Shown here one piece after another: positions 31,764-56,949 of a stretch of 64,000 bases of DNA (the first letter of the stretch is position 1; each line of letters opens with the position of its first letter). Both the position numbers and the translations under genes were made by a program. The notes below the pieces were generated by a model. That model was not told the DNA's origin. It worked only from the letters and a program-made list of their open reading frames with translations, and searched no databases. This DNA is from Anaerolineales bacterium (lineage in GTDB: Bacteria; Chloroflexota; Anaerolineae; Anaerolineales; RBG-16-64-43). The stretch lies in NCBI GenBank assembly GCA_034430775.1, contig DAOUDU010000203.1:12066-76065 (forward strand), written 5' to 3'.

Positions 31764-32321
31764 ATGACTGATACGACTCCGACAGAACAGAGCGATGCGA
31801 TCCTGGTAGCCCGGGCCAGAGAGGGAGACGCCGAAGCATTCGGATGTCTCTACCGGCGTTATGTGGATCCGATCTACCGCTACCTTTTCGCCCGGCTGGG
31901 AGAATCGAAGGAAGCGGAGGATTTGACGGAAGATGTTTTTTTCCGTGCCTTTCAGGCTCTGGGAACCTACCATGAACGGGGCTGGCCGTTTTCCGCTTTC
32001 CTTTACCAGGTGGCGAAAAACGTGCTGATCGATCATTACCGCCGGCAAAAACCGGAAGTTGGGCTCGCGAACCATGAACTTGCATTCGATTCGCTTCGTC
32101 CCCTCGATGAACGCGTTATCCGGGACGAACAAATGCGTGATCTGCGGCAAGCCATGGAGGATATCCCGCTTAATTACCGCGAGGTGATCATCCTCCGGAT
32201 CATCCTGGCGATGCCGACTTCCGTGGTGGCGAGTTGGATGAATCTGACCGAAGGCGCGACCCGCGTACTGTTGCACCGGGCGCTCGCGTCATTGCGCGGC
32301 AAGGTGCAGGGACGGATATGA
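31764..32321 (+). CDS. Sigma-70 family (ECF-like) sigma factor, paralog 2
   Basis: 185 aa. Ungapped alignment by eye to 28235-28792, with most positions identical. Confidence 0.85.
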   Translation: MTDTTPTEQSDAILVARAREGDAEAFGCLYRRYVDPIYRYLFARLGESKEAEDLTEDVFFRAFQALGTYHERGWPFSAFLYQVAKNVLIDHYRRQKPEVGLANHELAFDSLRPLDERVIRDEQMRDLRQAMEDIPLNYREVIILRIILAMPTSVVASWMNLTEGATRVLLHRALASLRGKVQGRI

Positions 32322-33394
32322 TCAGCAAAGACCGCCTTCAAGCCGATATCCTGGACCGCGCCTTTCAGCGGATGCTGGAAGAGAATGCGGCGATTGCCGA
32401 TTCCACCAAGGGTGAAGAGGGCGCGGTCTCTGACGTTCGCCCGCTGCTGGAAACCGCCGGCCGCGCGCGCGAATTGCTTCCCGCCCGCGGCCCATCGCCG
32501 GAATTTATTGCGGCGAGCGAAGCCCGCCTTCTGCGGCGGATTAAAGCGTCCGCCCCGCGGTCGACGAAGCAAGACTTTCGCTTGGCGGGCAAAGCCCGCT
32601 GGGGCTGGCTCCGATCTGCGGCCTTGGCCGCGGCGATCACCCTGATCGTCCTAAGCGCGGCGGGGTTGAGCGTAACATCCGCATCCGCCAGGGCGCTTCC
32701 GGGAGACGCGCTGTATCCTGTAAAGCAAGGACTCGAAGTGATATCCCTGGCGCTTACCGTGTCCGCGTCCGGAGATGTTGCCCTCTTGGCGGATTTCGCC
32801 GATGCGCGCGTGGAAGAAATCGAGCAGTTGGCTGCGCAGAACCGCGATGCGGATCTCGTCGCGGGATTGGAAAACTATGACAAAACGCTCAGCCACCTGG
32901 ATGGCGCCTTGGATCAGTTGCCGCCCGATTCCATCCAACTGGACGACATCCGGGCGCGGATTACACGGCATACACAAGTGCTGCTTTCCCTCCGGGATCG
33001 GCTTCCTGAACAGGCCCAATCGGCATTGGACCAAGCCGTTGAGCATTCCCAACAAAGCGTGGATCGGATCTGGAGCTTACAAAAGGATCAGGGGACCGAA
33101 GAGATTCCTCCAACTCTGAATAAGGAATCCACCACGGATGCCGGGAAAGGCGATGACGCGTCGTCGCCCACGGAAAAAAAACCGGATACGGACCCTCATA
33201 CCGACACTCCTGAGCTCACAGAAACCTCGGAACCCACAAATACTTTAGAGCCCTCACAGACTCCAAAGGCATCAAAGACGCCGAAGCCCTCGAAGACCCC
33301 GAAGCCCGCTGAGCCCACAAAAACTCCCAAGCCCGCTGAGCCCACAAAAACCCCCAAGCCCGCTAAGCCTACAAAAACCCCCAAGCCCGACTAG
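32318..33394 (+). CDS. DUF5667-domain single-pass membrane protein (anti-sigma-like), paralog 2
   Basis: ATGA overlap with the sigma stop. TM helix then ALPGDALYPVKQGLEVISL. The C-terminal tail carries three 27-nt repeats encoding PKPAEPTKT. Confidence 0.65.
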   Translation: MISKDRLQADILDRAFQRMLEENAAIADSTKGEEGAVSDVRPLLETAGRARELLPARGPSPEFIAASEARLLRRIKASAPRSTKQDFRLAGKARWGWLRSAALAAAITLIVLSAAGLSVTSASARALPGDALYPVKQGLEVISLALTVSASGDVALLADFADARVEEIEQLAAQNRDADLVAGLENYDKTLSHLDGALDQLPPDSIQLDDIRARITRHTQVLLSLRDRLPEQAQSALDQAVEHSQQSVDRIWSLQKDQGTEEIPPTLNKESTTDAGKGDDASSPTEKKPDTDPHTDTPELTETSEPTNTLEPSQTPKASKTPKPSKTPKPAEPTKTPKPAEPTKTPKPAKPTKTPKPD

Positions 33395-33758: not shown

Positions 33759-36560
33759 CTATCGTTTGAAAAACTCATCCACCGAGAAACCCCACTGTGT
33801 GTGAATCGTCCGCGGATCATATTGGTTGGCGCGCAGCCATCGGTGCAACGCGCGGGCCTGTTCTTCGCGGGTAAGATCCTTCCCCGGACGGAATCCCTCG
33901 TCGTCCATGCGCGCTTCACAGATCGGGCACTGCGACACCTGAAACGGATAAGTGATCGGAGTCGGCGGGCGGCTCACCGCCAGACGGAATCCGCAATGGG
34001 CGCAGGGTGTAAACGTTCCCCCTCCTTCCGGGCTTTCCGGCTTTTGAAACACTTCAAGGAAGTCGCGGGGCGGGCTTTCGGTTTTTCGTAAATGCCGGTC
34101 CAATCCCCAGAAGATGATGGAACCAAATATCCCGAGTGCCGCCGCCATCCCGCCCAGCCACGGCAGGAGCGAGCCCCAGGCGTCGTACCGGATTTCCACA
34201 TGGTGCGATCCGGCGGGGAGAGCGATCCGAATTAAATTGTCCCGCACCCCCAAACCGACCTTCACGCCGTCGATAGTCGCGCGCCAGCGGGGATGATACG
34301 TGTAAGAGATGAGCGCCGAGACCGGCCCGGCGGAGGCGTAATCGAAAGCCAGGCCGTCGGCGGATTCGGAATACGCCTGCAGAGGGACGGACGGCCATTC
34401 GAGGGTTGTGGATACCGGAATATCCTGAAGGATGATGGCGCGGATGTACTGGCGCAGAGCGCTCTGGCCTGTCAGCTGTGTGTAATACAGCAGGTTTCCA
34501 CCGATAAACCATACCCTGCCCTGACCAACGTCCTTATACCCGAGGACGGGATAGGAAGCCCCGTCCCGGTCCATTACCGCCACGATGGTATCCAATCCTT
34601 CATACGATGCTCCGGACCATCCTTCCTCGAGCAGGCCGGAGAAATGCAATTGCGCAGGCAGGTTTGCCGACGGGTCGGACCAGCGCAATGTCATCCGGTC
34701 GTCGAAGGCAAGCCGGAATGCGTGCACGCCGAAGAAATCCAATGTGCGCCCGAAGATATCCTCCATTCCGCTTAAGTCCACAACGATTGTCCCGCCGCCG
34801 TTGAGGTAGTTGCGCAGGATATCCTCGGTCTGCTTTACATCCACTGAATCCCCGGCGAACCGGTAGAAACCAAGGATGGGATACTCCGTCAGAGCACCGG
34901 ACTGCTCGCGGATGAACATATCGGGTGACGCTTCTTCGGCGAATGGAAATGCCGTCAGGAAGGGAGCCAGCCCGTCGCCGACGAGAAGCATGTTCTGAGC
35001 CGGGAGTTCCTGCACCCGTGCCGAAGGCGCGATCCTGCGCCAAAGCTCATACCGCCCGATGACTCCCGCCCGGTCGAATCCCATTCCCGATACGGCTTCG
35101 CGTGCCGGGTCCGCTTCGACGCCGCCCGCAATCACCGCCATACGCACATCCCAGCGGGCGAACAACGCCTCCAGATATTCCGGCCCCCACTCCGGCGCGG
35201 AAAGCACCCGGCGCAGGGCGACATGATGCGGCGTATTTTCCAGCGCCCAGCCGTTGATCAGGGGCGAGGCTTTCCCGGCGAAATACACCTCCAGCGAGGT
35301 CGGTTCCGGGTAGGTCAGCAGCGCGACCCGACCGCCGTCCGGCGCGGATACAGCCTCAAGCACGGCCTGCTCCTGCGGGTATCCGCCGCCGGGGATGATC
35401 CGTGCGGCCGGGACCAGCTCCACCGCAACCAGAATCACCAGCAGCAACGACCGGATCCAACGCAGGTTGCGCCCCATCGGGAGCAATCCGGCGGCGGCGA
35501 CGGGAATCGCGAATGCGGAGAAATTGACAAACCGTTCCGGGAGGAGCTGGTTGTTTAGGGGGATGAGATTAAAGAATACCCCGTCGGGGCCGAGGGAGAA
35601 CATGATTGCGAGCAGCCCGGTCAGATACCACGCGCTCCGGTGCGGATCGGGCCGGGCGGCGATCGCGAGCAGCCCGATCAGCAGCGACCCGAAACCGAAC
35701 AGGATCTGCCCGTGCGTGAGATCCAGGTAGGGAAGGAAGCCCTCCAGCGTGGAGGAGAACAACGGGATCTTTTCGGCGGGGAGGAACGGAACGTTAGCCA
35801 GTTCCGCGCGGCTGTATGCCGGGAGAAGCCAGGGCGCGGCGAACAAAGCTCCCAAGACAACGGAGCCCACCCACGGAGCCAATTGGTACAACGGAACTTC
35901 AGGGTCGAGGATCAACCGAAGGATGAGGTAGAAACCGATGCCGATGGCGAAGATCACCGCCTGTTGCGGATGGGACAGAATAGCCCACGTCCAGCACAAG
36001 CCGAGGAGTATTGTGATCGGCGCGCGGCGCGAGTTCGGGACGAGCAGGCGATCTGTCAGCAGTGCGATGGCCGGAAGCGCAAGCAGGCAGAGCATGCGCG
36101 GCAGATTCCCCTCGAAGAAAACCGTGCGCATTTGATACGGCGCGCCGACCGCGAGCACGGTCCCGAGAAAAGCCGCCCAGCGATTCCAGGCCCGGTCCAG
36201 GTAGGCAAAAGTGAGGCCGGAGAAGCCGACCAGGAACAGGGAGATTAAGATACGAAGCGCAATATCGCCATTTTGGGTGAGGTAAACCAGCGGCGCCAGT
36301 ACGAGGGTTGTCAGCGGCGGGTAATACGTGAGGAACGGATCCCCCATATACCAATTCGGCATCCAGGCGGCGCGGAAATAAGCGCCGGCACCTTCCGTGC
36401 CCATGATGCCTGCGAGGTACTCCGCCCGAAACAGATGCCCCCAGGTATCGGCACCGCGCGGCGAACCCGCAGTCCAGACTCCAACCAGCGCGAGAAGGAT
36501 AAAAAAAGCGACCAGGAGGACTGGCAGCACCTGGTCGCGAAAGGCGTGCTGGGGTTTCAC
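33759..36560 (-). CDS. Large polytopic membrane protein (GT-C/YfhO-like by architecture) with a C-terminal zinc ribbon
   Basis: 933 aa with a GTG start 1 nt after the GT2 stop. More than 12 N-terminal TM helices, a large extracytoplasmic middle and one late TM helix, then CAHCGFRL...CPICEARM. The family call is by architecture only. Confidence 0.55.
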   Translation of the reverse strand: MKPQHAFRDQVLPVLLVAFFILLALVGVWTAGSPRGADTWGHLFRAEYLAGIMGTEGAGAYFRAAWMPNWYMGDPFLTYYPPLTTLVLAPLVYLTQNGDIALRILISLFLVGFSGLTFAYLDRAWNRWAAFLGTVLAVGAPYQMRTVFFEGNLPRMLCLLALPAIALLTDRLLVPNSRRAPITILLGLCWTWAILSHPQQAVIFAIGIGFYLILRLILDPEVPLYQLAPWVGSVVLGALFAAPWLLPAYSRAELANVPFLPAEKIPLFSSTLEGFLPYLDLTHGQILFGFGSLLIGLLAIAARPDPHRSAWYLTGLLAIMFSLGPDGVFFNLIPLNNQLLPERFVNFSAFAIPVAAAGLLPMGRNLRWIRSLLLVILVAVELVPAARIIPGGGYPQEQAVLEAVSAPDGGRVALLTYPEPTSLEVYFAGKASPLINGWALENTPHHVALRRVLSAPEWGPEYLEALFARWDVRMAVIAGGVEADPAREAVSGMGFDRAGVIGRYELWRRIAPSARVQELPAQNMLLVGDGLAPFLTAFPFAEEASPDMFIREQSGALTEYPILGFYRFAGDSVDVKQTEDILRNYLNGGGTIVVDLSGMEDIFGRTLDFFGVHAFRLAFDDRMTLRWSDPSANLPAQLHFSGLLEEGWSGASYEGLDTIVAVMDRDGASYPVLGYKDVGQGRVWFIGGNLLYYTQLTGQSALRQYIRAIILQDIPVSTTLEWPSVPLQAYSESADGLAFDYASAGPVSALISYTYHPRWRATIDGVKVGLGVRDNLIRIALPAGSHHVEIRYDAWGSLLPWLGGMAAALGIFGSIIFWGLDRHLRKTESPPRDFLEVFQKPESPEGGGTFTPCAHCGFRLAVSRPPTPITYPFQVSQCPICEARMDDEGFRPGKDLTREEQARALHRWLRANQYDPRTIHTQWGFSVDEFFKR

Positions 36561-36561
36561 G

Positions 36562-38010
36562 TCAGCCCGCCCAAAACTCCATAAAATTCCGCAGCCATCC
36601 GTTTACTTTCCCTTCTCCGGGCAACCGCAACTTGTCCATCCATCCCGCGGAAGCCGTCCAGCGCGGCGGTTCGGTGAGAGTCTTCAGGTTTCCACTCATC
36701 CGGAAAAAGTATACTACCATCCGGTAGAGGGGCAGTAGCGGAAGAAAGACCAGCGAATTGCGCAGGATGCGGCGTTCACTGGGAGCGCAGATGCTCCACG
36801 CCGCCGCGATCTGTGCGGCATCGGCCAGAATGTACAATCCGTAGATGAGCGCCATCGCCTGAACCACCATTGCCAGACTGTATCCGAGCAGCGGGAACAT
36901 CGGCAGCAGGAAGATCCAGATCAGCCGCAGGAATCCCATCGTGTGGTCACGCTGCAGACGGCGCGGGAGTCCGCGCTGCCAGATTCGTTTCTTGCTGCCG
37001 AACATGTCATAATGCACGGCCAGCGCCTCCAGTTCCCCGCGCTGCCAACGCACCCGCTGGGCGAATAACGCCCGCCAGCTTTCGGTGGGCGCAAGGTGAA
37101 TGCGCACCTGCGGCAGGTATGTCACCCGCCCCGGAAAGCGCTGAAGGGTGAGGGTGGCGTCGGTATCCTCCGAGACGGTCCGGCCGCGGTACCCGTGGAT
37201 CGCCTGCAGGGCGCCGCGGCGGTAGATCGCGCAGGCGCCCGAAAGGGTGAACAACTCGTTGCGCAGGGCTTCCGCGTGGCGGCCGATTCGGAAGGATTGG
37301 AAATATTCGATGAACTGGGCCGTGGCGAGGAAATTTTCCATCACGCTCAACTTCATCGGGACCGGCATATCGTCCCGGTCGAGGTGGATGTGCCCGTCCC
37401 CGTCGTTCTCCACCAGCAGGTCGCGGTCGATGATCAGGTGGGCCGTGGCCGCCACCAGGTCCGGATCGCGCTGGAAGGCGATCACCGCCTGCTGGATCGC
37501 CTCGGGTTCGAGGACGGCGTCGGAATCGATGGTGAAGATCAGATCGCCGCGGCAGTGCTGCAGCCCGGTGTTGACCGCGGCGGGTTTTCCCTTATGGTCG
37601 CCATGCAGGAGCGTCATGACGCCGCCGAATTCGAGCGCGGGGATGACGCGGTTATACAGCCGGATGTGCCCGTTCCAGTGCGGTGAACCGTTGATATGGC
37701 CGTTGACCACTTCCTCGGTCCGGTCGGTGGATCCGTCATTGACGATGAGGATTTCTATCTTCTCGTGCGGGTAGGTCTGGGCTTTAAGCGAGGTGATACA
37801 GCGGTCGATGTTGAGCTGCTCGTTATGGGCCGGGATGATGATCGAGATTTTCGGCAGGGGGGGTTTTAACAGCGGCGGGAACAGCTTGGCGAGCCGGCCG
37901 TTGCGCCATACAAGCAGTGCGTCCCACAACGCCTGGCCGATATCCGCCGCCAGCGGAATAAGGATCCACACTCCCCACAGAATCAGAAAATCCACACCGT
38001 ACGAACCCAT
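36562..38010 (-). CDS. Processive family-2 glycosyltransferase (polysaccharide synthase-like)
   Basis: Start at ATG 38010 (MGSYGV). ISIIIPAHNE, NDGSTDRT, DSDAVLEP, SEDTDATL and QRVRWQRG (QxxRW), flanked by TM helices. Confidence 0.85.
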   Translation of the reverse strand: MGSYGVDFLILWGVWILIPLAADIGQALWDALLVWRNGRLAKLFPPLLKPPLPKISIIIPAHNEQLNIDRCITSLKAQTYPHEKIEILIVNDGSTDRTEEVVNGHINGSPHWNGHIRLYNRVIPALEFGGVMTLLHGDHKGKPAAVNTGLQHCRGDLIFTIDSDAVLEPEAIQQAVIAFQRDPDLVAATAHLIIDRDLLVENDGDGHIHLDRDDMPVPMKLSVMENFLATAQFIEYFQSFRIGRHAEALRNELFTLSGACAIYRRGALQAIHGYRGRTVSEDTDATLTLQRFPGRVTYLPQVRIHLAPTESWRALFAQRVRWQRGELEALAVHYDMFGSKKRIWQRGLPRRLQRDHTMGFLRLIWIFLLPMFPLLGYSLAMVVQAMALIYGLYILADAAQIAAAWSICAPSERRILRNSLVFLPLLPLYRMVVYFFRMSGNLKTLTEPPRWTASAGWMDKLRLPGEGKVNGWLRNFMEFWAG

Positions 38011-38024
38011 TCGCAGCCTCGAAT

Positions 38025-38627
38025 CTACAATGCCGTCCGCCGGGTCACTTCCAGTTCCCGGCGAATCATGGTGAGCGTCGGCAGGGTCAGCATCCGCCAA
38101 TAGAGGTAGAGTACGCCGACGAAGAAGACCAGCCGTCCGACAATCGCATGCGCCCACGGTACGATCGGTTTGCCGAAGGTCGCGACCATCACGATGATGA
38201 CCGCCAGCCGGACGAGATTGATCAGGATGGTGGCCGCCACGCCGACGGCCATCCGCCCCAGCCGTTCGTGCGCCGGAAGGCGCGGGTAAAAAAGCATCAG
38301 TCCGGCGAAGATCGCGATCTCGATCAGCGCCGAGCATTCGATCCCGACCCGCAGGATCGACCAGCCCGTCGGATCGGGCACGACCAGGCCGCCGCCTTGC
38401 ACCATTTGCAGCGGGCCGCCGAAGAGCTGGCTGATCAGTACCAGGAACCAGACCTGCAGGGTTCCCAGCGGCTCATTCCACTGTCCAAGCTGGCCGGCGA
38501 AAATGATGATCGTCGCCAGGCCGAATGCGCCCCAGAGATAGCCGGTCAGGCCTTTGTGCGCTTTACGCAGGAGAAGTAACCCGGCCAGATAGACCGCGGA
38601 GAAGATGGACAATGCCAGCGGACTCAC
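38025..38627 (-). CDS. Exosortase/archaeosortase-family protein (small, about 200 aa)
   Basis: GTG start overlaps the upstream stop (GTGA). Polytopic. Cys in GIECSALIE, Arg 42 residues later in INLVRL and His 20 residues later in WAHAIVGR, the ordered Cys/Arg/His of this family. Confidence 0.7.
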   Translation of the reverse strand: MSPLALSIFSAVYLAGLLLLRKAHKGLTGYLWGAFGLATIIIFAGQLGQWNEPLGTLQVWFLVLISQLFGGPLQMVQGGGLVVPDPTGWSILRVGIECSALIEIAIFAGLMLFYPRLPAHERLGRMAVGVAATILINLVRLAVIIVMVATFGKPIVPWAHAIVGRLVFFVGVLYLYWRMLTLPTLTMIRRELEVTRRTAL

Positions 38628-39121
38628 CCGCGGATCCTTTCCAGCACAGGTTCGAATGCCTTGCGCCGGCGCCAAAATCCGAAAAGAAGCACCCCCACCA
38701 TCACAACCGTCAATCCCCAGCCCAGGGTGGGGACGAAATGCACCGTGGTCGTTCTCGGACCGGCGATGTTGCAGTTTTGAGCGTTGCCTGTGCTCCAGCA
38801 GATGCTGATGGTGTAATCCCCTTCGGGCCAGTCGGTATTGACCGTTTCCCACTGGTCGTTGCGGGTTTCATACGCACTCATAGGGGACTGGCTGGTGGTG
38901 TGGGTGGCATATACCGTGCCTCCCAGCGCAATCGTGTAGTACAAATTGGACGGGCCGATTTTCGAGTCGGTATAAATCGTCGATTGGACGGTTACCGGAG
39001 TGTTTGGTGCCCAGCCCCCCCAGGCATTTAATGTAAAGATGCTTCCCGCGGCCAGAACCCTGCCCGGGAAAGCTGCAGCTGATATGGAGAGAAGCAAGGC
39101 AAATGAAATTATTTTTCGCAT
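38624..39121 (-). CDS. Small secreted protein with a C-terminal sorting-signal-like tail (VPTLGWG, TM, RRRK)
   Basis: Signal peptide MRKIISFALLLSISAAAFPGRVLAAG. About 110-aa Thr/Ser/Asn-rich beta domain. The tail is FVPTLGWGLTVVMVGVLLFGFWRRRKAFEPVLERIRG. Confidence 0.6.
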   Translation of the reverse strand: MRKIISFALLLSISAAAFPGRVLAAGSIFTLNAWGGWAPNTPVTVQSTIYTDSKIGPSNLYYTIALGGTVYATHTTSQSPMSAYETRNDQWETVNTDWPEGDYTISICWSTGNAQNCNIAGPRTTTVHFVPTLGWGLTVVMVGVLLFGFWRRRKAFEPVLERIRG

Positions 39122-39334
39122 TCTTTTCCGGATATGGACTTGATGAATCTCTCAACCATCCGCAGGGAAAATACAGGCTGGGAAGCAGAGTCAAGTCTCT
39201 TCCTTTAGGTTGATTCTAGCGGCGGAGGCCATAAAACCCCGTAATATTTGCATAAGTATAAATGTTCTAATTCAAAAAACTATCAAATCCTATCTTAAGG
39301 ATACCTAAAAACCCTATCCGAACCCTGATAGACA

Positions 39335-40648
39335 ATGAAAGAAGAAGGTAATTATCCTTTATCAGCCATGACCGGATCTTCACGAATCCCAGGATTCCAT
39401 AAAAAAACGATTAAGGAACGCCGGCAGGCGCTCATCGACGGCGGCTGGCTGGATTCGTCGAGTGCGCCAATCCTGGACCGCGGCGGGATCGATCCCGAAC
39501 TCGCCGACCGGATGATCGAAAATGTCGTCGGAATATTTTCGTTTCCCCTGGGGATCGCCACCAACTTCCTGATCAACGGACGCGAGGTCCTGGTCCCGAT
39601 GGTGGTGGAAGAGCCTTCGGTTGTGGCGGGGGCATCCTTCATGGCCCGGCTGGTCCGGGAGGGCGGCGGATTTTCCGCCGAGGCCGACGAACCGGAAATG
39701 ATCGGACAGATTCAAATCCTGGATTTACCGGATTTGCCGGCGGCGGAAAAGGCGCTGCTCGCGCAAAAGGTTGAAATCCTGGCCGAGGCCGGGGAGGCCG
39801 ATCCGGTCCTGGCGCGGGCGGGGGGCGGGCCCCGGGATCTAAAAGTCCGCAAAATCGATTCCCCGCTGATCGGGTCCTTCCTCGTCCTGCATCTGATTCT
39901 TGACGTGCGGGATGCCATGGGCGCCAACGCGGTCAACACTGCCTGTGAGCGGATCGCGCCGCGCATCGAGCGGATCACCGGCGGGCGGGTCCGGTTGCGG
40001 ATCCTTTCGAATTTGGCGGACCGGCGGCTGGCACGCGCGCGGTGTTCCGTGCCGGTCCATGCGCTGGCCTTCGAAGGCTGGAGCGGCGACGCCGTGCGGG
40101 ATGGGATCCTCGAAGCATACGCATTCGCCGCGGCAGATCCGCACCGCGCGGCGACGCACAACAAGGGAATCATGAACGGGGTGGACGCGGTGGTCCTCGC
40201 CACCGGCAACGATTGGCGGGCGGTGGAGGCCGGGGCGCACGCATTTGCCGCGCGCAACGGAACGTACACCTCGCTTTCGAAATGGAAACAGGACGGTGTG
40301 GGGAACTTGGCGGGCTTTTTGGAACTCCCCATGGCGGCGGGAATCATCGGCGGCGCCACGCGGGTGCACCCGGCCGCCCGGGCGGCACTAAAAATTCTCG
40401 GTGTGCATACCGCGCGCGAACTGGCCGAAGTAATCGTCTCGGTCGGGCTGGCGCAGAATTTGGCGGCGCTTCGCGCGCTGGCCACCGAAGGGATCCAGCA
40501 GGGACATATGCGCCTGCATGCGCGCCAGATGGCAATCGCCGCCGGTGCCAGCGGGGAGGCGGTGGATCAGATCGCCGGGCGGATGGTGGCGGAGAAAGCG
40601 GTTCGCACCGACCGTGCGGAAGAATTGGTCAATCGGTTGCGGAAGTGA
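39335..40648 (+). CDS. Class II HMG-CoA reductase
   Basis: [49 protein letters not shown] and the length (437 aa) are typical of class II enzymes. Confidence 0.92.
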
Positions 40649-40652
40649 CGGA

Positions 40653-41747
40653 ATGACGGACATTACCCCAACGGAGAAAACTCCTCGTATCGGAGCCCCG
40701 ATTATGCGGCCGGCGCGCAGCGCAGGTATCATCGGTTACGGCGCCTACGTCCCGCGCTTCCGACTGCCCGGCAAGGAAATTTCCCGCGTCTGGACCGAGG
40801 GCAATACGCCGCCGCCCGTCGCCGAAAAATCGGTTCCGGGGCTGGACGAGGACGTCATCACCATGGCGATCGAGGCGGCGCGCAACGCGCTGGCCCGGGC
40901 CGGGACGGCCCCGGCCGAAATCAGGGCGGTGTGGGTCGGATCGGAATCCCATCCGTATGCGGTGAAGCCTTCCTCCTCCGTCGTCGGCGAGGCCATCGGC
41001 GCTTCTCCCAACCTCCTGGCGGCGGATTGGGAATTCGCCTGTAAGGCCGGAAGCGAAGCAATGCAGGCCGCGATCGGCATGGTCGGATCCGGCATGATCC
41101 GTTACGCGCTCGCCATCGGAATGGACACGGCCCAGGGCCGGCCGGGCGACGCGCTGGAATACACCGCCGGCGCGGGCGGCGGGGCGTTCCTGATCGGACC
41201 GGCGGAGGACGCGCTGGCCGTGATCGAAGCCTCATATTCCTACGCAACCGACACGCCGGATTTCTGGCGGCGTGATCATGCGCAGTATCCGTCGCACGGC
41301 CAGCGCTTCACGGGCGAACCCGCCTACTTCCGGCATGTGACGCACGCCGCGCGGGCGCTGCTCGAAGGCACCGGCGCCCAGCCCGCGGATTTCCGCTTCG
41401 CCGTATTCCACCAGCCCAACCCGAAGTTCCCGCAGCGGGCGGCGGCGATGCTCGGTTTTACGAAGGAACAAATTCAGGCGGGCATGCTCTCGCCGCAGAT
41501 CGGGAACACCTATGCCGGCTCGGCGCTGATCGGCTTGACGGCTGTGCTCGACCAGGCCGCACCCGGAGACCGCATCCTGGTGGTGTCGTTCGGATCGGGC
41601 GCGGGTTCGGATGCGTTCCAGCTCACCGCCACGGAAAAGCTGCTGGAGCGGCGGTTGCGTGCCCCGCGCACCACCGATTACATTTCGCGCCGCAAGGAAA
41701 TCGATTACGGCGTATATGCACGCTTCCGGGGAAAACTGAAAATGTAA
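40653..41747 (+). CDS. HMG-CoA synthase, short archaeal-type
   Basis: [14 protein letters not shown]. Catalytic Cys context [13 protein letters not shown], plus [10 protein letters not shown] and [12 protein letters not shown]. Confidence 0.85.
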
Positions 41748-41801
41748 CCCCTCCCTAACCCTCCCCAAATCCCTCTGGGATTTGGGGAGGGAAGGGTGGG
41801 G
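41748..41801. repeat. C-tract/G-tract hairpin (family 2) between the HMGCS and DUF35 genes
   Basis: CCCCTCCCTAACCCTCCCCAAATCCC TCTG GGATTTGGGGAGGGAAGGGTGGGG. Confidence 0.6.
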
Positions 41802-41819
41802 TACGAAAGGAGTCGAAAC

Positions 41820-42221
41820 ATGGATATCACCAGACATTGGAGGTTGCGCCGGCAGCGTTACGCGCTCGAAGGCGAACGATGCGTTCACTGCCGGGAATAC
41901 ATCTTCCCGCCGCGGGATATCTGCCCGCATTGCGGCGAGGAAGCGGGCCCGTTGCATACCATGAGCGGCCAGGGCGAAGTGTATTCCTTCACCGTCGTCC
42001 ATGACCCACCGACCGGGTATGAAGCCCAGGCGCCGTACGCCGTCGCGCTGGTGAAGCTCGCGGAAGGGCCGCTGATCACCGCCCAGCTGACCGATGTCGA
42101 CGCCGCCGATATAAAAATCGGCATGCCGGTGGAGATGGTCACGCGCCGCCTGCGGACCGACGGGCCGGAAGGCGTGATTCAGTACGGCTACAAATTCCGT
42201 CCGCACCTTGCCGTTTCCTGA
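41820..42221 (+). CDS. DUF35 zinc-ribbon/OB-fold protein (thiolase-HMGCS scaffold type)
   Basis: CVHCREYIFPPRDICPHCG zinc ribbon followed by an OB-fold-like segment (VYSFTVVH...ALVKLAEGPLITAQL). AAAGGAG RBS. Confidence 0.8.
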   Translation: MDITRHWRLRRQRYALEGERCVHCREYIFPPRDICPHCGEEAGPLHTMSGQGEVYSFTVVHDPPTGYEAQAPYAVALVKLAEGPLITAQLTDVDAADIKIGMPVEMVTRRLRTDGPEGVIQYGYKFRPHLAVS

Positions 42222-42225
42222 TCCC

Positions 42226-43380
42226 ATGCGCGAAGTCATCGTTCTTGGGATAGGCCAAACCCGGGTCGAAGAACACTGGGAGCGTTCGCTGCGGGATCTC
42301 GCCACCGAGGCGGGCCTGGCGGCGATGCGCGACGCCGGTGTGGACCGGATCGACGCTGTGTTCGTAGGCAACATGCTTTCCGGCCAGATCGCCCATCAGG
42401 AGAACCTGGGGGCGCTGGTTGCCGATTGGATGGGGCAGCGCGGGGCGGAAGGTTTCAAAGTGGAAGCCGCCTGCGCCTCCGGGGCGGCGGCGTTCCGGGC
42501 GGCGTTTCTGGCCGTGGCATCCGGGGCGCTGGACGCGGTCCTGGCCGTCGGCGTGGAAAAAATGACCGAGACATCAGGCTCGGAGACGACCGCCGCCCTC
42601 GCGTCCGCCGCCGACGCGGATTTCGAAAGCGTACAGGGGATCACCTTCGTCGGCTTGAACGCGCTGATCATGCGCCGCTACCTGCATGCGTTCGGATGGA
42701 AGCACACCGACTTCGGGGAATTTTCGATCAACGCGCACGCCAACGGGGCGCGCAACCCAAACGCCCGTCTGCGTCAACCGATTACCGAGCGGGATTACGC
42801 CCGGGCGCGGATGATCTGCGAACCGATTAACCTCCTGGATGCCTCACCTATCGGTGACGGTGCGGCGGCCGCGTTGCTGCTCCCGGCGGATAAAGTGGCG
42901 GGGGGCCCGCGCCCGCGGATTAAAATCGCCGGTTCCGCCGCGGCAACCGACTCGCTGGCTGTACATGACCGCAAGGATCCACTTTTTCTCTCCGCAGCAC
43001 ATTTGGGCGCGCGGCGCGCCTTTGCCCAGGCGGGTGTTACGCCCGGGGAGATCGATTTTTTTGAGTTGCACGACGCCTTCAGCATTCTGGCCGCAATGTC
43101 GCTTGAAGCGTGCGGCTTCGCCGAACGCGGGCAGGGGCCGCGGATGGCGCTCGATGGCGCGATCCGGCTCGATGGAAAATTGCCCATCTGCACCCAGGGT
43201 GGATTGAAGGCGCGCGGCCATCCGGTCGGCGCCACCGGGATGTATCAGATCGTCGAGACGGTCCAGCAGTTGCGGGGTGAAGCGGGGGAAAACCAGCTTT
43301 CCAAAGCGCGGATCGGCCTGGCGCAGAACATCGGCGGGTCGGGCGCTTCCATTTTTACGCACATTCTGAAAGCGGAATAA
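42226..43380 (+). CDS. Thiolase (acetyl-CoA acetyltransferase), archaeal-type
   Basis: Catalytic Cys VEAACASGAAAF, plus ELHDAFSI, GGLKARGHPVGATG and NIGGSGAS. Confidence 0.88.
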   Translation: MREVIVLGIGQTRVEEHWERSLRDLATEAGLAAMRDAGVDRIDAVFVGNMLSGQIAHQENLGALVADWMGQRGAEGFKVEAACASGAAAFRAAFLAVASGALDAVLAVGVEKMTETSGSETTAALASAADADFESVQGITFVGLNALIMRRYLHAFGWKHTDFGEFSINAHANGARNPNARLRQPITERDYARARMICEPINLLDASPIGDGAAAALLLPADKVAGGPRPRIKIAGSAAATDSLAVHDRKDPLFLSAAHLGARRAFAQAGVTPGEIDFFELHDAFSILAAMSLEACGFAERGQGPRMALDGAIRLDGKLPICTQGGLKARGHPVGATGMYQIVETVQQLRGEAGENQLSKARIGLAQNIGGSGASIFTHILKAE

Positions 43381-55890: not shown

Positions 55891-56682
55891 CTACCAACGC
55901 GACATCCTGCGCGGTCTCATCATTGAATAAATCATGAATCCCGCCCCGCCGAGCAACGCCAAGCCGATCAATCCCAGCCATAATGAACCGGACCCCCCGC
56001 CTTCCTCCCCGGGTTTCTCGGGTGCGTTGGTCTGGACGGCGAAGCTGATTTTGGCCGTGGCGCCCGGTTCGAGCGTCAGAGATTTGTTCATCTCGCCCGT
56101 TGGATTGAAATTTTTAGGAGCGGCCGCCGCAATGTGGTACTCGCCGGCGGGAATATCGATAAAGCAATATTCCGCGGTCGGGTCCTCGATGGTGTGGTTT
56201 CCAACTTCCGTTCCGTCGGCAAGCGCCACGCTGACCTGCCCGCCGGGCACCAGCGACTCCGTGTCCTCCTTTTGGGATCCATCGCCGTTGGCATCGTTGA
56301 AGAAGGAAACACAGATGGTGCCTTTGCCGGTTACGGGCAGGGGGGACGGGGTGGCGGACGGCAGAAAGGCCAGCGTCGGTTCGGCGTAGGTCGGCGTAAC
56401 GATTCGCAGAATCAGGACCGTCCCGACTTGGAGCGGATCTTCGCGGTGGATGTTGTTCAGCCGTTCGAGTTCGTCGATCGGGATACCGGTTATGGCGGAG
56501 ATCTTCCACAGCGTATCGCTCTCCTGCACCGTATAGAGGATACGTCCATCGGCGAGCGGCGTGGCGGTCTGATACGCGGTGGGCTGGAGTGCGCCCTTTT
56601 CCGGCGATCCGGCCAGGGCCGGGATAGCGGCGATCGTCACCAGAAAAACAGCGATAAGAATCGAAGACAGCAAAGATCGCAT
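55891..56682 (-). CDS. Secreted LysM-domain protein with a beta-sandwich domain and a C-terminal TM anchor
   Basis: Signal peptide. LysM repeat YTVQESDTLWKISAITGIPIDELERLN...VGTVLIL. SdrD-B/Cna-B-like segment (GDGSQKEDTESLVPGGQVSVALADG). The tail is LWLGLIGLALLGGAGFMIYSMMRPRRMSRW. Confidence 0.78.
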   Translation of the reverse strand: MRSLLSSILIAVFLVTIAAIPALAGSPEKGALQPTAYQTATPLADGRILYTVQESDTLWKISAITGIPIDELERLNNIHREDPLQVGTVLILRIVTPTYAEPTLAFLPSATPSPLPVTGKGTICVSFFNDANGDGSQKEDTESLVPGGQVSVALADGTEVGNHTIEDPTAEYCFIDIPAGEYHIAAAAPKNFNPTGEMNKSLTLEPGATAKISFAVQTNAPEKPGEEGGGSGSLWLGLIGLALLGGAGFMIYSMMRPRRMSRW

Positions 56683-56949
56683 GAGACTCCCTCGTATGAA
56701 AAAGGCGGGTCTGACGGGGGGATTATAGCCTCTTCGCGGAGAGGGCTCCAGTCCACAGAAAACGGATATCCAATTGCTGGGCCGGCGGCGAGGAAGTCAA
56801 TGTGCCATGAAGATACAAAGACACAAAGAAATCGGGTTGAATGACAAAACAATCACCTTTTTACAGCTGTCGAAAACCCGTAAAAACGCATTGCATAAAT
56901 CACCAAGGATCTCCTTGCGTTCTTCGGGCCTCTTCGGTGTATATGGATT

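Follow-up and report, generated by a model that had tools for sequence, protein, structure and literature searches.

Within a stretch of 64,000 nucleotides from an Anaerolineales bacterium of the Chloroflexota (contig DAOUDU010000203.1, positions 12,066 to 76,065; hereafter the window), we analyzed a cassette of four genes built around a small protein of the exosortase/archaeosortase family. The genes all lie on the minus strand, packed head-to-tail in the order g1, g2, g3 and g4 (Table 1), and encode a secreted protein with a C-terminal sorting tail, the exosortase, a family 2 glycosyltransferase (GT2) and a large membrane protein, respectively. The open reading frame (ORF) calls and translations agree with an earlier description of this locus made from the letters of the DNA alone (the sequence-only reading), both in the motifs that it quoted for g2 and g3, which are all present, and in the packing of the genes, with the GTGA at 38627-38624 common to the stop of g1 and the start of g2 (a 4-nt overlap), 14 nt between g2 and g3 and 1 nt between g3 and g4. 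Independent public gene calls, available for three identical contigs, likewise yield products of 165, 200, 482 and 933 amino acids (aa).

A survey of loci with one genome per species yielded 80 loci, 23 from Chloroflexota, 2 from Coriobacteriia and about 55 from Firmicutes. In each of the 23 Chloroflexota loci a homolog of g1 stands directly upstream of the exosortase and a homolog of g3 downstream, and g4 follows on all 19 contigs that reach far enough. The tailed protein is kept wherever the other three genes occur in this phylum, in agreement with the sequence-only reading, which treated it as part of the system. At least 11 of the 23 loci have the 4-nt overlap as well, and the shared gene order together with this recurring overlap indicates that the arrangement is more than chance.

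Table 1. Features of the cassette, with positions in the window
Feature	Position	Strand	Description
g1	38624-39121	-	165 aa ORF
g2	38025-38627	-	200 aa ORF, GTG start
g3	36562-38010	-	482 aa ORF
g4	33759-36560	-	933 aa ORF, GTG start
g1 sorting tail, aa 130-165	38627-38734	-	VPTLGW, 14-residue hydrophobic segment, WRRRK, 11-aa cytoplasmic extension
Cys98 of g2, putative catalytic	38334-38336	-	GIECSAL motif
Arg140 of g2, putative catalytic	38208-38210	-	INLVRL motif, +42 from Cys98
His160 of g2, putative catalytic	38148-38150	-	WAHAIVGR motif, +20 from Arg140
Leader, presumed promoter region	39122-39334 (213 nt)	-	between the cassette and a divergently transcribed HMG-CoA reductase gene

The assignment of g2 to the exosortase family, proposed from its motifs alone, is borne out by profile searches. 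The protein passes the curated cutoffs of both the exosortase/archaeosortase signature TIGR04178 (53.4 bits, cutoff 23) and PF09721 (31.8 bits, cutoff 25.7). Among named subfamilies XrtG is the best match, with XrtR, XrtX, XrtS and XrtY far below their cutoffs and the ArtA-E models giving at most 27 bits. We aligned g2 with 21 Chloroflexota homologs (54-91 % identity) and three Firmicutes XrtG proteins annotated as such by the Prokaryotic Genome Annotation Pipeline (22-27 %). Throughout this alignment Cys98, Arg140 and His160 are invariant, and their contexts are conserved as ECS-x-x-IE, N-x-x-R and H-x-x-x-G-R, so that the catalytic residues picked out by the sequence-only reading hold in homologs from both phyla. 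Judged from its sequence, g2 is a minimal 200-aa member of the exosortase/archaeosortase family, of XrtG-like type. At its C-terminus (38025-38100) g2 shares with the other Chloroflexota exosortases a conserved final segment, ...YWRMLTLPTL..., in which LPTL resembles the substrate motif VPTLGW described below, and the Thr and Pro of this segment are conserved in Firmicutes XrtG as well (VFTKP). The resemblance may be a coincidence.

The product of g1 begins with a signal peptide (aa 1-25, ...VLA|AG), continues as a seven-strand β-sandwich (aa 26-129) and closes with a sorting tail that reads ...FVPTLGWGLTVVMVGVLLFGFWRRRKAFEPVLERIRG. The AlphaFold2 model (mean predicted local distance difference test, pLDDT, 82.7) consists of a helix at 2-17, strands at 26-129 and a helix at 134-156. 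No family in Pfam or NCBIfam matched g1, and Foldseek returned generic sandwiches of the immunoglobulin and fibronectin type III kind, including Wzt carbohydrate-binding domains, at query TM-scores (TMq) of 0.4-0.56. We considered assigning the fold to a specific carbohydrate-binding family and dropped the idea, the similarity being merely that of a generic β-sandwich (TMq at most 0.56). In the alignment of the 23 members of the g1 family, V130, P131, L133, G134, W135, R153 and F156 never vary and T132 and R152 hardly do, and the end of the signal peptide is conserved; the motif of the tail is held constant whereas the residues of its transmembrane (TM) helix vary. Across Chloroflexota and Coriobacteriia the tails follow the pattern TTxF[YS]-[SF][VI]P[TS]LG[W/P], then a TM helix, then W-RRR, with a conserved Thr-rich stretch (TTx) immediately before the motif. 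In two long-read metagenome-assembled genomes (MAGs) of Chloroflexia the g1 homolog is split by a frameshift (L017, 7473-7980; L019, 7482-7980) with the tail intact in another frame; these splits are probably homopolymer errors of long-read assembly and not pseudogenes.

The pairing of this tail with the exosortase is exclusive in the loci that we surveyed. All 23 Chloroflexota loci contain exactly one PTLG-type tail, and the gene that carries it invariably comes right before that of the exosortase; a second tail is absent within 8 kb on either side in 26 loci (the 23 from Chloroflexota, the 2 from Coriobacteriia, and L084, which duplicates the locus of the window). Besides g1, no protein encoded in the 64-kb window has a tail of this kind. 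When the pattern VPTLGW-14 aa-WRRR was searched as DNA across a metagenome collection, 13 matches were obtained, of which four are chance matches in non-coding frames and nine are real tails; eight of these nine belong to g1-type genes with g2 right after, and the ninth to a Coriobacteriia-type protein on a contig too short to show the next gene. A g1 profile run against 1.84 billion representative proteins found 56 relatives only, mostly of 150-250 aa. Six of them, of 400-830 aa, are multi-domain proteins whose match is confined to the ~85 C-terminal residues and which close with this tail, and the substrate that precedes the exosortase in Coriobacteriia is likewise a large multi-domain protein with this tail. 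Because the β-sandwich with its SVPTLGW tail stands alone in Chloroflexota and ends larger proteins elsewhere, these two elements form the conserved unit, which is organized in parallel to the Firmicu-CTERM domain of Firmicutes and looks as one expects of a modular sorting domain.

None of the CTERM models of NCBIfam reaches its cutoff on the window's own tail, which scores 11 bits with IPTL_CTERM (cutoff 20.5) and 13.9 bits with LPXTG_anchor (cutoff 15.9). We scanned 21 tails in all, and for the other 20 the comparison consists of the best E-values per family, without bit scores. MYXO-CTERM matched nine of the 21 with a best E-value of 2e-4, the other families gave best E-values of 0.002-0.9, and the PEP-CTERM model TIGR02595 was not matched. 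With matches this weak and this inconsistent among the 21 tails, we rejected an identity with IPTL-CTERM, PEP-CTERM, MYXO-CTERM or LPXTG.

These observations bear on whether g1 is cleaved at all. One could suppose that it stays uncleaved, that its tail is a permanent C-terminal anchor, and that it serves as an accessory or glycan-binding subunit of a synthase formed by g3 and g4, with g2 as a scaffold. The β-sandwich does resemble carbohydrate-binding accessory domains, such as that of Wzt, and synthase operons often encode bitopic co-factors; moreover, residues past the basic cluster (F156, E/P) are conserved, an uncommon feature in a part destined for removal. Against this stand the invariance of Cys, Arg and His over about 22-90 % identity, a motif at the membrane interface that is conserved far more than the helix behind it, and the presence of this tail on unrelated large surface proteins. 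A Coriobacteriia contig in which the motif is joined directly to the exosortase's first helix also fits an enzyme-substrate pair. We therefore regard a permanent anchor as the least probable of the explanations considered in this study, and take g1 to be the candidate substrate of g2. The contig in question, from a Coriobacteriia MAG (DASXUP010000017.1; L026, 5328-8396), carries substrate and exosortase in one ORF of 1022 aa, in which ...TTSFYSVPVLG runs into a helix and RRRRR, with the body of the exosortase after it; in L027, the neighboring genome, helix 1 of the exosortase itself takes the place of the helix that follows the motif in L026. This may be a natural fusion of substrate and enzyme or an artefact of assembly.

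The third gene encodes a protein of the processive synthase type, with an N-terminal TM segment, a catalytic domain and a C-terminal TM bundle (hydrophobic segments at aa 6-34 and 358-398), and the motifs NDGSTD, DSDAV, SEDTD and QRVRWQRG make up the full processive GT2 set. Its Pfam matches are PF00535, PF13641 and PF13632. The closest NCBIfam model is TIGR03111, the XrtG-associated glycosyltransferase, as the sequence-only reading would have it in calling g3 the GT2 partner of an XrtG-type system; PgaC/IcaA (PgaC 114 bits), CelA (81 bits) and NodC come next, and the N-terminal half of g3 has weak matches to ArnC-like (~31 bits) and PpgS-like models. With annotated TIGR03111 proteins g3 shares 26-28 % identity over 92 % of its length, and its position and orientation are those of the GT2 in annotated XrtG cassettes.

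The product of g4 matches PF10131 (PTPS_related, for 6-pyruvoyl-tetrahydropterin synthase) along the entire profile (positions 1-620 of 621), with 130.2 bits. It comprises an N-terminal TM domain, an extracytoplasmic α/β and β-sandwich region (~400-790), a last TM helix (~798-825) and a cytoplasmic tail. A sequence search of the PDB with g4 gave no match. An AlphaFold2 model built from 30 homologs (pLDDT 85.1; predicted template modeling score, pTM, 0.79) found as its top Foldseek matches AftD (4e-9), AftA, STT3/AglB/PglB, DPY19 and ArnT, and in the 30 homologs D38, W40, G41 and H42 are invariant, with D38 lying in the first outer loop. The model thus presents g4 as a GT-C-fold protein with a conserved acidic residue in its first extracytoplasmic loop, and both halves of the earlier proposal, a protein related to the pterin synthase family and one of GT-C type, find agreement here. 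The Coriobacteriia counterpart carries a PMT_2 GT-C domain, and the large partner in E. eligens also matches PF10131 (455 bits). Beyond the last TM helix, g4 and all 30 aligned homologs have a cytoplasmic C-terminal extension (~800-933; 33759-34161) with four invariant cysteines, C853, C856, C878 and C881, arranged as a CxxC...CxxC zinc ribbon, a feature that points to a module for regulation or partner binding on the intracellular side of a GT-C enzyme.

The cassette might mainly serve protein glycosylation, with g3 making a polyprenyl-phosphate sugar in the manner of GtrB or ArnC, g4 glycosylating g1 in the manner of an oligosaccharyltransferase or PMT, and no free exopolysaccharide being produced. 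The structural neighbors of g4 include STT3, AglB, PglB and DPY19, the Coriobacteriia partner has its PMT_2 domain, the TTx stretch comes right before the motif, and the ArnC-like and PpgS-like matches, weak as they are, fall in the N-terminal half of g3. However, g3 has a bundle of several helices at its C-terminus and contains the motif Q(R)xRW, and it scores 238 bits with TIGR03111, 114 with PgaC and 81 with CelA against ~31 for ArnC-type models. We consider a pathway of glycosylation without a polymer highly improbable, and favor a processive synthase in g3 acting beside the exosortase and its substrate.

The system most similar to this cassette is the XrtG system of Firmicutes. A tblastn search with g3 against plasmids led to annotated XrtG cassettes in Lactococcus lactis, Lachnospira eligens (= E. 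eligens) and Aneurinibacillus, where the genes occur in the order Firmicu-CTERM protein, xrtG, TIGR03111 glycosyltransferase, QueD-like 6-carboxytetrahydropterin synthase and a large membrane partner, which in Lactobacillales is a TIGR03766 glycosyltransferase and in Clostridia a membrane protein related to PTPS. The sequence-only reading described XrtG as a family with no established sorting signal, which is outdated, since these annotated cassettes encode a Firmicu-CTERM protein; because of that belief, it took the adjacent substrate for a novelty. An adjacent and translationally coupled substrate is in fact the already known, canonical XrtG architecture. The order of substrate, exosortase, GT2 and large membrane glycosyltransferase is also present in ~55 Firmicutes loci, the stop of the substrate overlaps the start of the exosortase by 4 nt in L. 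lactis too, and each locus has a single adjacent substrate. In both systems the exosortase has ~190-200 aa with the ECS...N-x-x-R...H-x-x-x-G-R residues, the substrate consists of a globular domain and a tripartite tail with a short extension past the basic cluster, and PF10131 is shared by g4 in Chloroflexota and the partner in Clostridia. The hosts of XrtG and the hosts considered here belong to lineages generally held to be monoderm.

There are also differences. Scores with the XrtG model are bimodal, with Firmicutes proteins at 148-262 bits and all tested Chloroflexota and Coriobacteriia proteins at 75-88 (84-88 for the relatives of g2), below the cutoff of 102.75, and no other named subfamily scores anywhere near its threshold. 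The tail motif in Firmicutes is G[GA]STGP, followed by the TM helix and a Lys/Arg cluster, as opposed to [FY]S[VI]PTLGW, TM and RRR here. The Firmicu-CTERM model TIGR04145, whose 191 positions span both the globular domain and the tail, scores 154 bits on the L. lactis protein and 94 bits on the E. eligens protein, but matches neither g1 nor its tail even at E-values up to 10, and hhalign between the g1 family and Firmicu-CTERM proteins gives a probability of 12 %, with the TM tail alone aligned. On these two grounds Firmicu-CTERM membership of g1 was rejected, and the globular domains of the two substrates are unrelated. By tblastn with two QueD-like queries, a QueD-like gene turns up in nearly all Firmicutes loci, but neither the 23 loci from Chloroflexota and the 2 from Coriobacteriia nor the 64-kb window contain one. 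The zinc ribbon at the C-terminus of g4 is an addition, and the hosts here are Chloroflexota and Coriobacteriia.

The likeness to XrtG noted in the sequence-only reading stands as far as the best named subfamily and the gene order are concerned, whereas membership by the score of g2 does not. A plain orthologue of XrtG might nevertheless look like this, if the cassette were a divergent true member of XrtG, TIGR03111 and Firmicu-CTERM whose sequences have merely drifted in a distant phylum. XrtG and TIGR03111 are the best named matches of g2 and g3, the Joint Genome Institute labels most g2 homologs 'exosortase family protein XrtG', and neither the gene order nor the PF10131 match of the large partner distinguishes the cassette from annotated ones. 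Drift alone is difficult to reconcile with two separate modes of XrtG score, with a substrate that lacks any TIGR04145 match, with SVPTLGW in place of G[GA]STGP, and with the missing QueD-like gene, and we judge plain orthology to be unlikely. By curated thresholds the cassette falls outside XrtG and Firmicu-CTERM, its GT2 has TIGR03111 as best match but scores below the cutoff, and on present sequence comparisons it is better described as a sister variant. What is new is a Chloroflexota/Coriobacteriia lineage, probably sister to XrtG, with its own sorting domain, which in g1 no NCBIfam or Pfam model captures, and with a reduced set of genes.

Three further observations concern the Firmicutes systems. 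On the conjugative plasmid pBV60 of Lactococcus lactis, genes for a diguanylate cyclase and an EAL-domain protein lie immediately upstream of the Firmicu-CTERM/XrtG cassette (L001, 1956-3641), which hints at control of Firmicutes XrtG systems by cyclic di-GMP (c-di-GMP); nothing like them adjoins the cassette of the window. A contig labelled Thermoflexaceae (L038, JAQXXN010000037.1) encodes a tail of Firmicutes type (GTSSGP) along with a QueD-like gene, and its sequence is almost the same as that of a locus of Eubacteriaceae (L031), which points to a mis-binned contig or a recent transfer and not to a system of the Chloroflexota type. A paper from 2026 describes a 'complete Exosortase G system' with the architecture given above in L. 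plantarum and reports its up-regulation in a self-aggregating strain, a result at the transcript level only (PMC12854382); it is the one mention of the system in the searchable literature.

Taken together, the evidence favors an exosortase system of monoderm type that would be the sister of XrtG in Firmicutes and serve a single dedicated substrate, a reading to which we assign a probability of about 0.72; each of the three rivals discussed above is less likely. In the mechanism that we propose, g1 would be exported by the Sec pathway and fold outside the cell as a β-sandwich of ~105 residues, transiently held in the membrane by its C-terminal TM helix and the RRRK stop-transfer cluster. The exosortase g2, with its putative center of Cys98, Arg140 and His160, would recognize [FY]S-VPTLGW at the outer membrane interface, remove the TM tail and pass the new C-terminus of g1 to an acceptor, on the model of sortase A and archaeosortase A. 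Similar to PgaC and cellulose synthase, g3 would polymerize and extrude a β-glycan, and g4 would modify either this glycan or the Thr-rich stretch of g1 at the outer face with a sugar from a polyprenyl-phosphate donor. The outcome would be a protein and a glycan that are made together and associated with the surface or the matrix; g1 may be joined covalently to the glycan, may just bind to it, or may be anchored to lipid. The cleavage of g1, its site, the acceptor, the sugar and a covalent link between protein and glycan are all inferred.

Several points weigh against this reading. The scores of g2 with the XrtG model TIGR03110 (75.5 bits, cutoff 102.75) and of g3 with TIGR03111 (237.8 bits, cutoff 363.95) are both below the thresholds. 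The exosortase profile had no match among the sequences of the PDB, and hence there is no solved homolog from which the geometry of the triad could be taken. The 11-residue extension after the basic cluster of g1 is longer than that of classical PEP-CTERM tails, whereas Firmicu-CTERM tails carry similar extensions, and the cassette has no donor-synthesis gene for its GT-C enzyme. Finally, the searchable literature contains no biochemical characterization of the XrtG family or of the lineage described here, and for this reason the cleavage and transfer of g1 rest on analogy.

A bolder version holds that the exosortase joins the C-terminus of g1 covalently to the glycan of the GT2 and GT-C enzymes, or to its lipid-linked precursor. 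We know of no bacterial exosortase with a defined acceptor and, to our knowledge, linkage of a protein to a polysaccharide has yet to be demonstrated for any exosortase; we consider such a conjugate quite improbable. If it did exist, the Chloroflexota cassette, with a substrate of 105 residues and an enzyme of 200 aa, would be a minimal system in which to prove the linkage, and the apparently fused substrate and exosortase of L026 would represent a self-processing version.

Comparison with other sorting systems helps to delimit the cassette. XrtA, the enzyme of PEP-CTERM systems, is much larger than g2 and acts in diderm cells with large exopolysaccharide loci and many PEP-CTERM substrates scattered over the genome. 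The PEP-CTERM/XrtA (EpsH) system has in common with ours the enzyme superfamily (PF09721), a tripartite tail of motif, TM helix and Arg cluster, and a link to glycosyltransferase genes for exopolysaccharide (PMC1569441), but here a minimal enzyme of 200 aa is paired with one adjacent substrate. Archaeosortase A (ArtA) of Haloferax volcanii, which acts on PGF-CTERM proteins, shares the superfamily, the triad and a Thr-rich region upstream of the motif (PMC7157517). It provides the best experimentally supported model for such enzymes, its substrate being cleaved near the motif that precedes the C-terminal TM helix and then anchored to lipid (PMC7157517). It differs from our system in the motif and in the domain of life, and ArtA systems are without a co-operonic pair of GT2 and GT-C genes. 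IPTL-CTERM (TIGR04174), with its similar 'IPTL' signature, TM helix and basic residues, is the sole named CTERM model whose alignment begins at the motif of the g1 tail; nevertheless, at 11 bits against a cutoff of 20.5, with E-values of 0.3-0.4 and matches in 3 of 21 tails, this is resemblance and not membership.

Exosortases are widespread but poorly understood in the searchable literature. The lineage described here carries the 'Gram-positive' XrtG system into Chloroflexota and Coriobacteriia, and provides it with a new cognate sorting module that the models now used for annotation fail to capture. At NCBI, g1 and most g4 homologs are labelled 'hypothetical protein', a few g4 homologs are named 6-pyruvoyl-tetrahydropterin synthase-related, and g2 bears only the generic family name. 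The lineage also narrows the XrtG core down to substrate, exosortase, GT2 and GT-C protein, with the QueD-like gene dispensable. The lineage offers a straightforward basis for new hidden Markov models, and its pairing of one enzyme with one small substrate makes it a convenient candidate for exosortase biochemistry. The find is incremental; it overturns nothing and does not represent a new kind of system.

The leader in front of g1 is AT-rich, as the sequence-only reading stated, with a GC content of 40.4 % compared to 61 % for the cassette and the window, but its role as a promoter region is only presumed. No sigma-70 consensus is found on the minus strand of the leader, and scans for sigma-70 promoters and terminators gave counts equal to those of shuffled sequences. 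A riboswitch or other structured leader 5' of g1, for example one that binds c-di-GMP, was rejected, since the leader has neither an Rfam match at E-values up to 1 nor excess folding energy (z-score +0.39).

On one side the cassette is flanked by divergently transcribed genes of mevalonate-pathway type, for an HMG-CoA reductase, an HMG-CoA synthase-like protein, a zf-ChsH2/OB protein and a thiolase (39335-42374, both strands). The polyprenyl-phosphate donors of GT-C enzymes derive from isoprenoid synthesis, and a tie between these neighbors and donor supply for g4 is speculative. On the other side, the plus strand (31764-33394) encodes an extracytoplasmic function (ECF) sigma factor as well as a protein of 386 aa whose repeat tail is rich in Pro, Thr and Lys (KTPKPAEPT...). 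Farther away on the minus strand (55891-56796) lies an ORF of 301 aa, which has a LysM-like match and closes with ...GGGSGSLWLGLIGLALLGGAGFMIYSMMRPRRMSRW. Its Gly/Ser motif, TM helix and basic cluster give this end a superficial likeness to a CTERM tail, and it may be a simple C-terminal membrane anchor.

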